Assembly: GCA_965237415.1 (NCBI GenBank)
Contig: CBDEFM010000002.1
Location: 2,080,001 to 2,144,000, forward strand
Length of the DNA: 64,000 bases
Direction of reading: 5' to 3'
Source of the DNA: Alphaproteobacteria bacterium
GTDB lineage: Bacteria; Pseudomonadota; Alphaproteobacteria; UBA828
In this document: piece after piece, positions 3,326 to 64,000 of the stretch
Layout: every line of letters starts with the position of its first letter
Position numbering within the stretch: the stretch's first letter is position 1
Program-made: the position numbers and the translations under genes
The notes under the pieces: generated by a model
Told to the model about the DNA's origin: nothing
Databases searched by the model: none
Seen by the model: only the letters and a program-made list of their open reading frames with translations

Positions 3326-5086
3326 CTACCACGCGAGCCCGTAGGCCGGCCGCCGCGGGTCCGCTCCGCCCGAAATCGTGCACCGAGCGATATCCTGAAC
3401 CAGCACGCACATCGCGCCCGCCGGCCAGGCCCACTCCGGCCACCAGTCGACCCCGTGCCCCCACGCGGCGAGCGCCTCGCCTGCGGCCTCGGGAATTCGC
3501 GCCTCCAGCATCAGCTTGTTGGGATGGTACTCGTGCGGCTCGAAAGAGTTGGGGAAGCTCATGGTGGCGAAGCGCGGTGCCTCGACGGCAGCCTGCGGGT
3601 TCATGCCGTAGGTCACGATGTTCACGAAGGTCTGGAGCATCGCCTGGATCTGGACGTCGCCGCCCGGCGTGCCGAAGGGCATGACGAAGGCGCCGTCCTT
3701 GATCGCAAGCGCCGGGTTGGGCGTGAGCCGCGGCCGCTTGCCGGGGGCGACGCTCGACGCGTGCCGAGGGTCGGCCCAGGATTGCGCGCCGCGCGAGGAG
3801 ACGCAGAGCCCGGTGCCGGGGATCACCGGCGTGTCGAAGGAGATATCGCTCGGCGTCGCCGAGAAGACGTTGCCTTCGCTGTCGATGGCGCAGACGTAGG
3901 AGGTATCGTGCGCGGCCTCGACCGGCCCTGCCGCTGCCGCAGCCCGCGAAGGGGCGTCCTGCGCAAGGCCGCCCGTGGGGTCGCCCGCCGTCGGCATCTC
4001 GGGCCAGGCCTCGCCCGGCCGGATGAGGGAGCGGCGGCTGGCGATGTAGTCGTCCGAGAGCAGCGCCGCCGTCGGCACGTCGACGAAGCGGGGGTCGCCG
4101 ATCCAGCGTTCGCGGTCCGCGAAAGCCAGCTTCAGCGCCTCTACCATCATGTGCAGCGCGTCCGGGCTGTTGTGGCCCATCGCCGCCAGCGCCTTCAGGT
4201 CGAGCAGGCGGAGCGCCTGGAGCAGCGCCGGCCCCTGGCACCAGGGGCCGCAGGCATAGACGTCGATGCCCTCGATCGTGACCCGCTCGGGCGGCTCCAC
4301 CGCCACCCTGAAGGAGGCGAGGTCGTCGGCCGTGAGCAGGCCGCCGTTCTCGCGATGGTATTGGACGATGGCCGCGGCGATATCGCCCCGGTAGAAGGCG
4401 GCGCGGGCGGCGGCGAGGCCCGCGGCGCGGCCGCCACCGGCGGCGCGCTCCTCATCCGCCATGTACTGGAGGGAGCGCCCGAGGTCGGCCTGCACGAAGA
4501 CATCGCCGACGGCGGGCGGGCGGCCGCCCGGCAGATAGATCGCCGCGTTGGACGGCCAGCGGGCGTAGTTCTCGACCTTATTCGCGATCACGCTCGCCAT
4601 CAGCGGGTACATGACGAAGCCGTCGCGCGCGAGCCTGATCGAGGCCTCGGCCACCTCGCCGAAGGTCATCGTTCCGTGGCGTTCGAGCGCGGTGATCCAG
4701 GCGTCGGGTGCGGCCGGCGCGACGGTGCGCAGCAGGCCCACCGGGATGTGCCCGTCGTGCTCGCGTTGGAAGAGTTCGGGCGTCATCGCGCTGGGCCAGG
4801 TGCCGAGGCCGCTGATGGTCTCCACCTGCCCCGTCTTCGCGCTGTAGAGGATGATCGGGGCGACGCCTGCGACATTGACCAGATCGCTGTGCACGATGCC
4901 CAAAGCGATGCCTGCGGCCACGCCCGCGTCGATGGCGTTGCCGCCTGCCTCCAGGATCGCGAAGCCCGCCTCCGCTGCCAGGTAGTGCCCGGCGACGATC
5001 GCGTGTCGATGGCCGCGGATCACCGGCCTGAGCGCGTCGATCGCCTCGGGGTCGAACGCCGCGTATTCGCTTCGGCGTCTGATCAT
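3326..5086 (-). CDS. ggt: gamma-glutamyltransferase family protein
   Basis: GGNAIDAGVA, HDTSYV (autocleavage Thr), PGKRPRLT, FGTPGGDVQ, GGADPRR; start taken at MIRRRSE. Confidence 0.9.
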   Translation of the reverse strand: MIRRRSEYAAFDPEAIDALRPVIRGHRHAIVAGHYLAAEAGFAILEAGGNAIDAGVAAGIALGIVHSDLVNVAGVAPIILYSAKTGQVETISGLGTWPSAMTPELFQREHDGHIPVGLLRTVAPAAPDAWITALERHGTMTFGEVAEASIRLARDGFVMYPLMASVIANKVENYARWPSNAAIYLPGGRPPAVGDVFVQADLGRSLQYMADEERAAGGGRAAGLAAARAAFYRGDIAAAIVQYHRENGGLLTADDLASFRVAVEPPERVTIEGIDVYACGPWCQGPALLQALRLLDLKALAAMGHNSPDALHMMVEALKLAFADRERWIGDPRFVDVPTAALLSDDYIASRRSLIRPGEAWPEMPTAGDPTGGLAQDAPSRAAAAAGPVEAAHDTSYVCAIDSEGNVFSATPSDISFDTPVIPGTGLCVSSRGAQSWADPRHASSVAPGKRPRLTPNPALAIKDGAFVMPFGTPGGDVQIQAMLQTFVNIVTYGMNPQAAVEAPRFATMSFPNSFEPHEYHPNKLMLEARIPEAAGEALAAWGHGVDWWPEWAWPAGAMCVLVQDIARCTISGGADPRRPAYGLAW

Positions 5087-61021: not shown

Positions 61022-61684
61022 TCACCGCCCCGAGCGAGGCGGGCCGCAGCATCCGTCCAGGATTACCCGGGTTATGGTCTCCGCCGCAGCGTCGAAGTCC
61101 CTGCGTGTGAGCCGTCGCCTCTCCAGCACGTCCGCCGCCAGCGCCCCGAAGTCCGCGTAGAACTCGGTCGCGGACCACAGCATGATGAAAAAGTGGCGGG
61201 GGTCTACCGGCGCCATCTGCCCCCGGCGGATCCATTCCTCCACCACGTGGGCGCGCTGGATGGTTACGTCGCGAATGTGCTGGCGCTGACGCCGCTCCAG
61301 AAGCTGCGCACCACGCAAGATCTCGTTGGCAAAAAGGCGCGAGTCGGCGGCATGGCGGCGGGAATACTCGAGCTTGGCACGGATATAGGCGGCGATGGCG
61401 TCGCGTGGCTCGCGCTCGGGCACAATATGCTCGAAGGCAAGATCCCAGCCCTCGATCAGCCGCTCGATCAGGGCCGTGTAGATGCTCCCCTTGGTCGGGA
61501 AGTAGTAGTAGACGTTGGCCTTGGGCAGGCCGCTCGCCTGCGCGATTTCCTTCATATGGGTGCCGTGGAAGCTCTTGTCGGCGAAGAGACCGACGGCGGC
61601 GTTTAAGATACGCTCCTTGTTCCTAGCCCGAATTCTCGGCTCCGGCCCGTCATTTCCCGCCTCTGCCCGCATCGTCTTGGTCAT
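61022..61684 (-). CDS. TetR-family regulator, RutR-like
   Basis: ILNAAVGLFA, GLPKANVYYYFPTK, YIRAKLEYSR, SRLFANEILRGA, DPRHFFIMLWSATEFYADF. Confidence 0.88.
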   Translation of the reverse strand: MTKTMRAEAGNDGPEPRIRARNKERILNAAVGLFADKSFHGTHMKEIAQASGLPKANVYYYFPTKGSIYTALIERLIEGWDLAFEHIVPEREPRDAIAAYIRAKLEYSRRHAADSRLFANEILRGAQLLERRQRQHIRDVTIQRAHVVEEWIRRGQMAPVDPRHFFIMLWSATEFYADFGALAADVLERRRLTRRDFDAAAETITRVILDGCCGPPRSGR

Positions 61685-61768
61685 GCTCTTCCCTCGCGTC
61701 GCAGGGGACTTCCTGCGTATGCCCGTAACGCATGCAGTCTAGCCGCTTGGTCTGGCCGGGTCGCGCTG

Positions 61769-61908
61769 GTGCAGTTGGCGACTCGATTGCTCGTCGAGGA
61801 AGCGCTGGAGGGTGAGAGCCGGGACGTCCTCGGCCGAGAGCACTACGAGCATGGCGCGTCGCCGGGCCAGAGCTGGCGCAACAGTGTGCCCATGGGTTGT
61901 CTGCGTAC
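61769..61908 (+). pseudogene. IS256-family transposase N-terminal fragment
   Basis: LATRLLVEEALEGESRDVLGREHYEHG..WRN, cut off by an IS3 end. Confidence 0.6.
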
Positions 61909-62045
61909 TGAGGTGGCCTCGCCTTTTCGGACAACCTGGCGGCTGAGCCAATGTGTATTCCGGTTGATTCTCAGGCCGCCAAGAATCCACTTGATGCGCT
62001 CTTCCTGTCGGTGCTGCTGCGCCTATGGAGATGTAGGCAAGCGCG
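61909..62045 (-). mobile_element. IS3-family right-end remnant related to 44220-44370
   Basis: tgaggtggcctcgccttttcggacaa...tcaggccgccaagaatcc...ctgctgcgcctatggagatgt parallels the intact copy. Confidence 0.75.
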
Positions 62046-62433
62046 ACGATGCCCGCATGAGCCTCGGATTCGAACGCCTGCGCATCGCTGTCTGCGCCGA
62101 GCTGCTCGCCCATTCCAGCTGCGCGGGTGCAGCGGGCCATTTGGATCTCTGCACAAGGGCCACGCAGCGTCAGTTTGCGCCACAGCAGCGCTTGTACTTG
62201 CGCCCGGAAGGTCCAGGCGGCGAGCCTCGCCAAACTCTCGGCTCCCGGTGCTCTCTTCCGTCGGGAGAGCCCGGCAGCCCCGCCTCGACCACCCCCTGAT
62301 GCCGCCACGCGCGTGTCCGGTGACACCGCGCCGAACCCGAACCATCCACCAGCCACCGCGCGGCCACCGCCGTCAGCCAATGACCGCCCATCTGAAGACC
62401 GCACTCGAGAACACGCACCGCTACCCCCCTCGT

Positions 62434-62467
62434 TTGACTCGCGATAACTGTTGTTATCGCGAGTCAA
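62434..62467. other. lox-like recombination site 1 (13-8-13)
   Basis: TTGACTCGCGATA-ACTGTTGT-TATCGCGAGTCAA: perfect arms, asymmetric spacer. Confidence 0.85.
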
Positions 62468-62504
62468 ACTCCGGGCCGTATTCCACGGACCTGGAGGCTT
62501 CCCC

Positions 62505-63476
62505 ATGCTTGTCGACACCCTGAACCGCCCGCCGCAGGCGAGTGGCGGCCACACTTGCCGGGACCCGTTCGACGCCTGCGCCTGCGCCGCGCGCGGGGCG
62601 CTGAGTGCCAACACCGAGCGGGCCGTGCGCTCAGACCTCGCCATCTACGCCGCCTGGTGCAGGGAACGCGGGGTGCCGGCGCTGCCCGCGAGCGCCGAGA
62701 CCATCGCCGCGTTCGTCGACGCCAGGGCGAAGCTCCGTGCCCCCGCGACGGTGCGCCGCTACGTGGCGAGCATCGCGGCTGCGCACCGGGCGCTGGGGTC
62801 GGGAAAGACGGCGAGAAGCGAGCCGGTGCGACGGGCGCTGCAGCGCATGCACCGGCGAAAGGGACGGCGTCAGGCGCAGGCCAAGGGGCTCACCGGGGCG
62901 CTGCGCCAGCGCCTTCTCGACGCCACGAGCGATGGCCTCATCGACGCGCGCAACCGCGCGCTGCTCGCCGTCGCCTACGACACGCTGCTGCGCCGCGGCG
63001 AGCTCGTCGCGCTGCAAGTGACGGATATCGTTGAGGAAGTGGACGGCGCGGCGACGGTGCTGGTGCGCCGCGCCAAGGCCGACCCCGAAGGCCGCGGCGC
63101 GACGGTGTACCTGGCGCGCGACAGCGTGGCGCTGGTGCGCGAGTGGCTGGAGCGAAGCGGGGTTATCGAAGGCAGGCTCTTCCGCTCGCTGTGCCGGGGC
63201 GCGGTCGGCAAGGGGCTCGACGCGAGCCAGGTCCCGCGCATCTTCAAGGCCATGGCCGAGCGCGCCGGATTGCCTGGCGAGGTCGTCGAGCGCATCTCCG
63301 GGCACAGCACGCGGGTCGGGGCGGCGCAGGACATGGTCGCAGGCGGCATCGGCATGGCGGCCATCCTGCACGCAGGAAGGTGGAAGACGTCGGCGATGGT
63401 CAACCGCTACGGCGAGCGGCTGCTGGCGCGGCGAAGCGGCGCCGCGCAGCTCGCCCGTCTGCAGCATCGCGAGTAG
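62505..63476 (+). CDS. Cre-like tyrosine recombinase
   Basis: RNRALLAVAYDTLLRRGEL, RAK, SGHSTRVGAAQDM, AGRW, MVNRY: all R-K-H-R-W-Y catalytic residues present; GGAGG RBS before ATG 62505. Confidence 0.93.
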   Translation: MLVDTLNRPPQASGGHTCRDPFDACACAARGALSANTERAVRSDLAIYAAWCRERGVPALPASAETIAAFVDARAKLRAPATVRRYVASIAAAHRALGSGKTARSEPVRRALQRMHRRKGRRQAQAKGLTGALRQRLLDATSDGLIDARNRALLAVAYDTLLRRGELVALQVTDIVEEVDGAATVLVRRAKADPEGRGATVYLARDSVALVREWLERSGVIEGRLFRSLCRGAVGKGLDASQVPRIFKAMAERAGLPGEVVERISGHSTRVGAAQDMVAGGIGMAAILHAGRWKTSAMVNRYGERLLARRSGAAQLARLQHRE

Positions 63477-63576
63477 GTGCGCGGTGGTGTATCATTCGGC
63501 GTATCCTCGGCTGGCGGCTGGCGCCTGCCGCCGTCCGACCGCCGCGAATCGCTCCAGAGGGCGGATTTCCCGAAAA

Positions 63577-63593
63577 TGTTATCGCGAGTCAAA
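63577..63593. other. isolated lox-like half site
   Basis: TGTTATCGCGAGTCAAA, identical to the right arm of site 1. Confidence 0.7.
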
Positions 63594-63778
63594 ATCGCCG
63601 ACCCGGCGCATGGCCGGCATCGGGCGTCGGATGCGCGGGCAACGCGCACCGCGCGCCTGGAAAGACGAAAGCTGTCTTGCAATCAACAGCTTGCAGCATG
63701 TTGCGGAACGCTCTACGGTTGCCGGGTCGCGACTGGGCGGCTTCCGGGTCGCCCGTCGAAAACGGCGAACTTGACAGT

Positions 63779-63812
63779 TTGACTCGCGATAACAACAGTT
63801 ATCGCGAGTCAA
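63779..63812. other. lox-like recombination site 2 (inverted relative to site 1)
   Basis: TTGACTCGCGATA-ACAACAGT-TATCGCGAGTCAA; spacer is the reverse complement of the site 1 spacer. Confidence 0.85.
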
Positions 63813-64000
63813 ATGCCCCCGCGGGCGCCGTGCCTCCACGGCCTGAGAATCGATCCAACCGGCTGATTTCGTGTGCGTTTCTCGACCCGGAGCGGCCGCT
63901 CCGGCCCGCGCGGCGCACGCACCGCCTCCTGCGCCTTCCCAGGAAGCCCGTCCGCCGCCGATCTGCCCTTGCAGGCACGCCCTTTCGGTCCGCGGCCCGC

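Follow-up and report, generated by a model that had tools for sequence, protein, structure and literature searches.

Why should a bacterial chromosome carry the gene for a Cre-like recombinase between two inverted copies of what appear to be the enzyme's own sites? The question was raised by a 64,000-nucleotide stretch of an alphaproteobacterial genome (GenBank assembly GCA_965237415.1, 4.75 Mb in two contigs, C1 and C2), which corresponds to C2:2080001-2144000 and is referred to here, at its full length, as the window. Near its right-hand end, a first-pass annotation made from the sequence alone had noticed a tyrosine recombinase gene enclosed by two lox-like palindromes, and had suggested that this natural recombinase/site pair might flip the segment that carries its gene or move it as a module. 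Our analyses of this copy, of its paralogues in the same genome (found by tblastn) and of its relatives in other bacteria led to a reading that supports that interpretation in part and extends it: the segment is probably a self-encoded Cre-type invertase cassette with an outward-facing promoter, i.e., a portable phase-variation switch. The extension comes from the spread of multiple copies across phyla, from a -35-like box and a phased extra arm within the segment, and from the giant genes that the cassette abuts.

A recombinase gene between inverted lox-like sites

Both sites were found where the first-pass annotation had placed them, at 62434 and 63779. Each is a perfect 34-bp element with 13-bp arms about an 8-bp spacer, the two are exact reverse complements of each other, spacers included, and the stretch that they delimit, from 62434 to 63812, measures 1,379 bp. 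Read as reverse complements, the two ends are identical over 38 bp, and their asymmetry is confined to the central 4 nt (TGTT at one end and AACA at the other). The arm TTGACTCGCGATA occurs five times without mismatch in the window, as the four site arms and as a lone arm on the minus strand in the non-coding part of the segment, while in 100 shuffles searched with up to 2 mismatches the mean was 1.28 matches, and none reached 5. The lone arm had also been noticed in the first-pass annotation, correctly as to its presence and wrongly as to its start, which had been put at 63577; the arm proper begins at 63580. That site 1 ends 37 nt before the start codon likewise agreed with the earlier account, with the ATG at 62505 as the start. 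This ATG was chosen because GGAGG lies 8 nt upstream of it and because the start is shared with the paralogues, and a TTG at 62451, inside site 1, was set aside in its favor. The length of the leader and its GGAGG are conserved in the relatives.

The earlier description of the gene product as an intact tyrosine recombinase with Cre-type signatures, including Trp at the H/W catalytic position, was borne out by domain, alignment and fold comparisons. The protein contains a Pfam Phage_integrase domain (PF00589, E 1.3e-17), and a phmmer search of PDB sequences found Cre as the best match (E 3.6e-22, window residues 28-307), with 17 of the 18 matches being Cre or Tre and the 18th XerD (E 1e-6). Residues R163, K191, H267, R270, W293 and Y302 fall at Cre columns R173, K201, H289, R292, W315 and Y324, and all six of these catalytic residues are invariant in an alignment of 10 sequences. 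The AlphaFold model was of moderate quality (predicted local distance difference test score 67.7), and its Foldseek matches were led by Cre and Tre chains (E ~1e-13, template modelling score ~0.44), followed by XerA, XerD, IntI, XerH and lambda Int. In addition, the protein scored far under the cut-offs of the NCBIfam Xer models. Judged by its sequence, its catalytic residues, its fold match and the form of its sites, the enzyme is a Cre-type tyrosine recombinase.

The genome holds four intact copies in total, i.e., the window copy and paralogues designated the C1 copy, P3 and P4, plus two fragments. All four intact copies have their parts in the same order: a site, a 37-nt leader, the gene, ~100 bp of further sequence, the lone arm, a spacing of ~166-186 bp, a TTGACA-like box and the inverted site. 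Their site sequences differ, the arms of the C1 copy being TTGGCTCGCGATA and those of P3 and P4 being ATTGCGCTCGATA, with other spacers. One of the fragments, at C2:2247122-2249631, is a decayed copy that retains only the final 34 codons of the recombinase and has a gene for a 600-aa DDE (IS4-like) transposase between the lone arm and site 2, and at C2:3838735-3838777 a solo remnant consists of TTGACA-GG followed by a degenerate site, without a recombinase gene beside it.

Conservation across phyla and one recorded inversion

Relatives of the recombinase proved numerous. Matches at E up to 1e-20 were present in 11 of 20 other genomes of the genus, and one of these (G003) has the same architecture and an adjoining protein of at least 2,027 aa. 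Of 8,000 candidates scored in a large protein collection, 2,738 were relatives at E up to 1e-10, many of them >75% identical and many lying on short contigs (1.1-1.7 kb). When one genome per species was scanned, 381 relatives emerged, and the best 79 of these 381 loci were analyzed, 71 of them with full flanks. By record title the 79 loci comprise 34 from Gammaproteobacteria, 29 from Alphaproteobacteria, 8 from Gemmatimonadota, 2 from Vicinamibacterales (Acidobacteriota), 2 from Chloroflexi, 1 from Poribacteria and 3 others; for short contigs such assignments may include binning errors, but the copies from Vicinamibacterales and Gemmatimonadota include records of 1.8-4.7 Mb. Sponge-associated lineages are named in several of the titles (Spongia_Bin9, Poribacteria, Poriferihabitaceae). 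Across these relatives, which come from metagenome-assembled genomes (MAGs), the unit is ~1.2-1.45 kb long.

Flanking palindromes, for which the first-pass annotation had proposed that homologs be examined, are common among these relatives. An upstream site of the form GATA-N8-TATC was found in 52 of the 71 full-flank loci, a downstream one in 47, and both in 44. In every one of the 44 pairs the spacers are reverse complements (21 exactly, 40 with at most 1 mismatch and all 44 with at most 2), and none is in direct orientation. Below about 55-60% identity the two-site form seems to be absent; among 80 metagenome loci from the Joint Genome Institute there were 2 clear site pairs, only in relatives that are at least 60% identical.

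The 44 paired loci were combined with the window, C1 and P3 copies into a set of 47 units, with P4 left out on account of the degenerate state of its site 2. In 46 of these units the central 6 bp of one site exactly match the reverse complement of the other's, even though the set contains 18 different central 6-mers and, among its 188 arms, 76 distinct sequences. Arms and spacers co-vary with the recombinase across the 47 units, which accords with the earlier proposal of a natural recombinase with its own cognate 13-8-13 sites. In 39 units an accessory arm that matches the unit's own arms is found 160-199 bp ahead of site 2, always in the same orientation, and its spacing falls into two classes, near 166 and 186 bp, that are about two helical turns apart. 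In 34 of the 47 units TTGACA with at most 1 mismatch (20 of them exact) adjoins site 2 on its inner side at a distance of exactly 2 nt, compared with 0-1 of 47 at each of three control positions. The hexamer that ends the spacer follows the box by 17 nt and reads TACAGT in 11 units, GACAGC in 8, AACAGT in 5 and others in the remainder, and its position 2 is A in 38 of the 47.

The clearest sign that such a segment can invert came from a single MAG, two contigs of which (L053 and L060) carry related units. Their 1.94-kb centers are co-linear and 96.7% identical, and their flanks are swapped and inverted relative to each other (94.6% identity over 646 bp and 80.9% over 867 bp). Since each outer arm has remained attached to its flank and each inner arm to the center, the exchange points are placed inside the 8-bp spacers. 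In L053, the neighboring gene, of 657 aa, has a GTG start 15 bp beyond site 2, directly after TTGACA-GG-site-AGGAG, whereas its homolog in L060 is found next to site 1 and runs divergently from the recombinase. Both loci have a tandem double site, and it was the outer member that served in the inversion. By this comparison of sequences, L053 and L060 record at least one past inversion, and the inversion of a gene-carrying segment at inverted sites, as first suggested for the window copy, has thus been seen as a past event in its relatives. A weaker case was provided by a family of MalT-like genes (43-50% identical to one another) that flank the unit on the left (site 1) in L075 and L076 and on the right (site 2) in L045 and L065; it is the weaker because the right neighbor of L075 and the left neighbors of L045 and L065 are not co-linear.

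Several other arrangements were considered as inversions and not counted as such. The inverted flanks of L093/L110 and of L062/L063 proved to be caused by inserts resembling insertion sequences (IS), and a joint between opposite strands in L021 (7455 to 7816, on one contig, with a short side of 31 nt) is off the spacers and fits a relative with a shorter 3' region. The insert in L062 (4189-5474) and L063 (4183-5468) is 1.29 kb long, has short terminal inverted repeats, occupies the 3' non-coding part of the unit and is in opposite orientation in the two copies, which belong to one MAG.

Some loci have more sites than two, or sites of another kind. In the tandem double sites of L053 (2847-2927) and L060 (2692-2772) a second full site stands 13 bp from the first, and in L084 (~4216-4284) the two are 1 bp apart. 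In L107, a perfect 34-bp inverted repeat (2742-2775 and 4200-4233) that is unlike the lox-like arms encloses the recombinase gene. Two divergent recombinase genes lie ~5.5 kb apart in L052/L088 (OZ250178.1, 546251-553610), and these two cassettes may bound a larger invertible segment; the left flanks of L075 and L088 match each other in inverted orientation (90% over 2.56 kb).

Recombinases of Gammaproteobacteria and Vicinamibacterales are 85-86% identical, and the window protein, which is 89% identical to a gammaproteobacterial copy, is closer to it than to its own paralogues. We read these identities as transfer, and on that reading of the sequences the cassette has spread between phyla. The features of the window copy and the intact paralogues are collected in Table 1.

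Table 1. Features of the window copy (window coordinates) and positions of its intact paralogues (contig coordinates)
Feature	Position	Strand	Description
Site 1	62434-62467	.	lox-like 13-8-13; arm TTGACTCGCGATA, spacer ACTGTTGT, right arm TATCGCGAGTCAA; palindrome extends over 62432-62469
Leader of recombinase gene	62468-62504	+	37 nt; GGAGG at 62493-62497
Cre-type tyrosine recombinase gene	62505-63476	+	323 aa, intact
Non-coding 3' part of invertible segment	63477-63778	.	302 bp; contains the accessory arm and the -35-like box
Accessory lone arm	63580-63592	-	186 bp before site 2
-35-like box TTGACA	63771-63776	+	2 nt inside site 2, faces outward
Site 2	63779-63812	.	TTGACTCGCGATA-ACAACAGT-TATCGCGAGTCAA; arms as in site 1
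AACAGT in site 2 spacer	63794-63799	+	17 nt after TTGACA; candidate -10 of a putative outward split promoter
C1 copy	C1:297366-298334		86% identical to window protein (tblastn)
P3	C2:3124877-3125758		70% identical to window protein (tblastn)
P4	C2:3021029-3021919		70% identical to window protein (tblastn)

A proposed promoter switch and its rivals

Under Cre-type chemistry, as exemplified by Cre/lox, inverted sites with matching spacers give inversion, and the mechanism that we propose builds on that precedent. The recombinase would bind the 13-bp arms of both sites and exchange strands within the central 6 bp, and because the sites are mutual reverse complements the product would be an inversion of the whole segment, recombinase gene included. 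Either spacer, read outward, presents a -10-like hexamer of the ACAGT type 17 nt beyond the position of the TTGACA, and a flip would carry the -35 box to the other end, yielding a complete promoter aimed at either the left or the right flank; the cassette would thus be an on/off switch of the split-promoter kind. The assembled orientation, with the box pointing away from a tight left neighbor, would be OFF and the majority state. The lone arm probably binds one more monomer, and its phased distance suggests that the DNA is looped, which could bias or regulate either the reaction or the promoter. Our analyses established the anatomy, its conservation and co-variation, one natural inversion at the spacers of relatives and the kind of gene nearby; that there is a promoter, that the DNA loops, how fast the cassette switches and whether the window copy is active are matters of inference.

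What pointed to a promoter switch, rather than to a lone recombinase/site pair, was the position of the cassette, which in most relatives is immediately next to the 5' end of a large gene that faces outward. Neighboring genes were called at 44 loci with a heuristic for open reading frames (ORFs) based on composition, and a left neighbor was called in 36. In 32 of the 36 this neighbor and the recombinase are on opposite strands, and in 18 loci the start of its longest frame is within 71 bp (2-71 bp) of site 1, a distance that leaves no room for a promoter of its own. Pfam searches of 10 left neighbors gave fn3, SWM_repeat, cadherin-like, Calx-beta or He_PIG domains in 5, a sulfatase in 1 and no family in 4, and two further left neighbors are a LuxR/MalT-type regulator and a cadherin/SWM/Calx-beta/SRCR protein. 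These Pfam results (surface proteins, sulfatase, regulators) also ruled out the idea that the large left neighbor was a Tn3-type transposase. In the genome of the window, the C1 and P4 copies adjoin proteins of 3,066 and 2,700 aa, respectively, with fn3, SWM and Calx-beta domains. The giant proteins have domain types in common and are not co-linear, from which it follows that the cassette sits before different genes. The right neighbors include a TonB receptor, an S8 peptidase, a hybrid kinase, and LysR and MalT-like regulators. In the relatives, then, the genes to be switched would be those for giant fn3/SWM/Calx-beta/cadherin proteins, the sulfatase and the MalT/LuxR-type regulators. A wider form of this proposal, held more tentatively, is that a Cre/lox-type phase-variation cassette is spreading horizontally and switches giant adhesin-like and other secreted proteins in at least four phyla, and that its dozens of co-varying variants constitute a natural library of mutually orthogonal Cre-like systems; we regard that as possible.

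The window copy itself is less well placed. Its nearest genes are a TetR gene 750 bp to the left and an ORF of 96 aa 786 bp to the right, and no regulated gene lies directly outside either site; the copy is intact and has perfect sites, but it is probably an orphan or was recently rearranged. The TetR (YcdC-like) gene, at 61032-61760 of the window, has a second copy, 86% identical, at C2:2693356-2694084. The 96-aa ORF (C2:2144598-2144888, 598 bp to the right of the window end, and the same as L021 8599-8889) matched no Pfam family; 14 or more related copies of it exist in this genome, and every one of the 20 genus relatives searched has copies as well. To the left of site 1, the intervals 61909-62045 and 62064-62202 contain short repeats with copies at 78-88% identity elsewhere in the genome, which may be relics or resemble miniature inverted-repeat transposable elements. 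Outside site 2, by ~60 bp, lies an imperfect 23-nt inverted repeat (63874-63919), and P3 and relatives have a perfect GC-rich hairpin of 12-13 bp ~290-520 bp outside site 2; hairpins and inverted repeats so placed could terminate transcripts in a 'parked' orientation. No Rfam family was found in 61500-64000 at E up to 1.

A number of observations weigh against the switch. A scan of 62000-64000 for consensus promoters returned no sigma-70 promoter, and the recombinase gene's own promoter was not found either. The -10-like hexamer is weak in many units, among them the eight with GACAGC, and only 19 of the 47 have both A at position 2 and T at position 6. In nearly all assemblies the -35 box faces away from the tight left gene, so that the model must assume that OFF is the majority state, and the right neighbors are 185-1131 bp away and face outward in 19 of 31 cases and inward in 12. 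Neither the window copy nor P3 has a giant neighbor, although P3 has a 58-aa remnant of one. A detectable pair of sites is missing from 27 of the 71 full-flank relatives, some of them cut by IS-like inserts (L062, L063) and many of them more distant relatives, and the pair finder that yielded the 44 pairs selected partly by spacer complementarity and is biased towards that result, though at most loci it had no more than one candidate on each side to choose from. Since L053 and L060 have diverged from each other, they speak for at least one past inversion rather than for ongoing switching. Lastly, the sequences examined from four of 13 sequencing runs, none of the 13 recorded as RNA, are metagenome contigs that stop at the palindromes of the window copy, and none spans site 1 or site 2.

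The same data lend themselves to another explanation, namely that the unit is a selfish mobile module bounded by inverted recombinase sites and moved or exchanged by site-specific recombination, similar to a dif module with the recombinase on board, with neighbors that are incidental. That the unit may move as a module, which the first-pass annotation had allowed for, is suggested by its discreteness in differing contexts and by homology that ends at the site edges. Between the window and C1 copies the homology spans C2 2142429-2143813 (86%), ending at the outer site edges, and it ends within 0-8 bp of the edges in L037, L039, L043, L046, L048, L050, L057, L077 and L082. There are several copies per genome, identities reach 85-89% across phyla, many metagenome contigs of only 1.1-1.7 kb encode the protein, and the copies lie among IS elements and integrases, those of the present genome being surrounded by IS21, IS5, integrase and HU genes. 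Yet neither a target-site duplication nor a common target motif was seen at 40 junction pairs, and homology continues for 80-2,500 bp past site 2 in many loci. In addition, integration of a circle by a Cre-type enzyme gives direct rather than inverted sites, we see no Cre-type reaction by which a unit would be inserted between inverted sites, and a purely selfish module would leave unexplained both the fixed TTGACA box and the placing of start codons and ribosome-binding sites just beyond site 1, at 2-71 bp. We consider this explanation unlikely, while recognizing that a mobile module and a switch are not mutually exclusive. An empty site was sought with a 16-kb query in 20 genus relatives, in which the blocks left of 2140930 and right of 2147000 are conserved and were never adjacent, so that no empty site was identified. 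An insertion sequence or transposon was rejected, the unit containing no DDE or HUH transposase and the 40 junction pairs showing no duplication or shared motif.

Two explanations that dispense with inversion as a function fared worse. The unit could be the degenerate remains of a plasmid or prophage system for multimer resolution or cyclization, of the Cre/lox kind, in which the second site is accidental and without a role. Cre and Dre are, after all, phage enzymes, and in the nearest relatives from cultured bacteria, which are plasmid genes, a single lox-like site precedes the start by 38 bp. However, an inverted second site is present in 44 of 71 loci, with the central 6 bp exact in 46 of 47 units, and its retention with co-varying spacers implies selection; the copies are chromosomal, the window copy has no phage or plasmid genes around it and no tRNA was found by a scan of its surroundings, and inverted sites cannot resolve dimers. 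We therefore regard a degenerate resolution system as very improbable. A Tn3-family resolution system (TnpS/TnpT of the Tn4651 type, or TnpI) was set aside since partner genes are lacking and there are two inverted sites, not one; the first-pass annotation had asked whether a TnpT-type partner was needed, and no TnpT or Tn3-type gene lies within ~8 kb of the window copy. The palindromes might instead be mainly operators, at which the protein, as an autorepressor or regulator, would occupy sites 1 and 2 and the lone arm, with recombination rare or lost. The position of site 1, 37 nt before the ATG in all copies, would suit such a role, and so would the phased lone arm, which suggests looping. 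Repression offers no reason for the central 6 bp to remain exact reverse complements while they drift, nor for the invariance of six catalytic residues in 10 aligned sequences, and it is at odds with a recorded inversion that has its breakpoints in the spacers; we regard an operator role, too, as very improbable. Hairpin-telomere and rolling-hairpin schemes were also dismissed, the site center being asymmetric and the enzyme plainly Cre-like.

Known systems and what the cassette would mean

Known Cre-type recombinases (Cre, Dre, Vika, Nigri, Panto and YR1-YR12) resemble the window enzyme in having two domains, the residues R-K-H-R-W-Y and, beside the gene, a 34-bp 13-8-13 site (Jelicic et al. 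2023, PMC10250229). That paper reports ~500 predicted pairs of Cre-type recombinases and palindromes, eight of them validated, and describes a G-A-T-A motif beside the spacer as a feature of active sites, which the window sites have as well (PMC10250229). The window family may be among those ~500 pairs, for which the main text names no organisms or sites (PMC10250229). The window enzyme is only ~29% identical to Cre and Dre, and its arm, as the first-pass annotation had held, is distinct from lox, with 6 of 13 positions unlike those of the lox arm annotated for phage P7. P7 has one lox site, 418 bp upstream, rather than two inverted sites around the gene, and unlike Cre/lox the window family is chromosomal and multi-copy and has an accessory arm and a -35-like box, its recombination being predicted. 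The nearest cultured relatives, ~49% identical, are plasmid genes of Methylobacterium/Methylorubrum (for example on p1METDI, NC_012987.1), which resemble the window family in having a lox-like site with ..CGATA arms, located 38 bp upstream of the start codon; within 700 bp downstream of them there is no inverted second site, whereas the window family has two sites.

In its logic the proposed cassette resembles Hin/hix of Salmonella, where the recombinase gene and an outward promoter lie within a segment bounded by inverted sites, and a flip connects or disconnects the adjacent gene. Hin, however, belongs to the serine invertases and depends on Fis and an enhancer, and the cassette differs from it in having a Cre-type tyrosine recombinase, full lox-like sites and a candidate -10 in the crossover region. 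In fimS, the tyrosine recombinases FimB and FimE flip a promoter before genes for a surface structure. Both fimS and the Bacteroides invertons share with the proposed cassette a promoter flipped by a tyrosine recombinase before genes for surface structures and one dominant orientation in the population, and differ from it in that the recombinase lies outside a segment of ~0.2-0.3 kb with simple inverted repeats, as opposed to a gene inside 1.2-1.45 kb in a unit found across phyla. The dif modules have inverted sites as well, pdif sites being 28 bp long. Those of Acinetobacter plasmids are discrete, bounded by tyrosine-recombinase sites and present in many contexts, like the cassette, but they use the host's XerC/XerD and carry cargo genes, where the cassette encodes its own Cre-type enzyme and has no cargo. 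In the literature searched we found no description of a Cre-type gene inside its own inverted sites acting as a switch; a cassette spread across phyla was not specifically searched for.

If the proposal is true, this would be the first Cre-type enzyme that naturally flips a promoter cassette together with its own gene, and it would tie the best-known recombinase of genome engineering to phase variation. The many natural recombinase/site pairs would allow residues and bases to be compared and are candidates for orthogonal engineering tools, and the phasing of the accessory arm may indicate that direction is controlled from within the cassette, a capacity that Cre/lox lacks. The strongest biology lies in the relatives, including the C1 and P4 copies beside their genes for giant surface proteins. 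For uncultured symbionts, the cassette would offer a testable route by which giant 'eukaryote-like' surface proteins may be varied, by means of a switch that itself moves between phyla.

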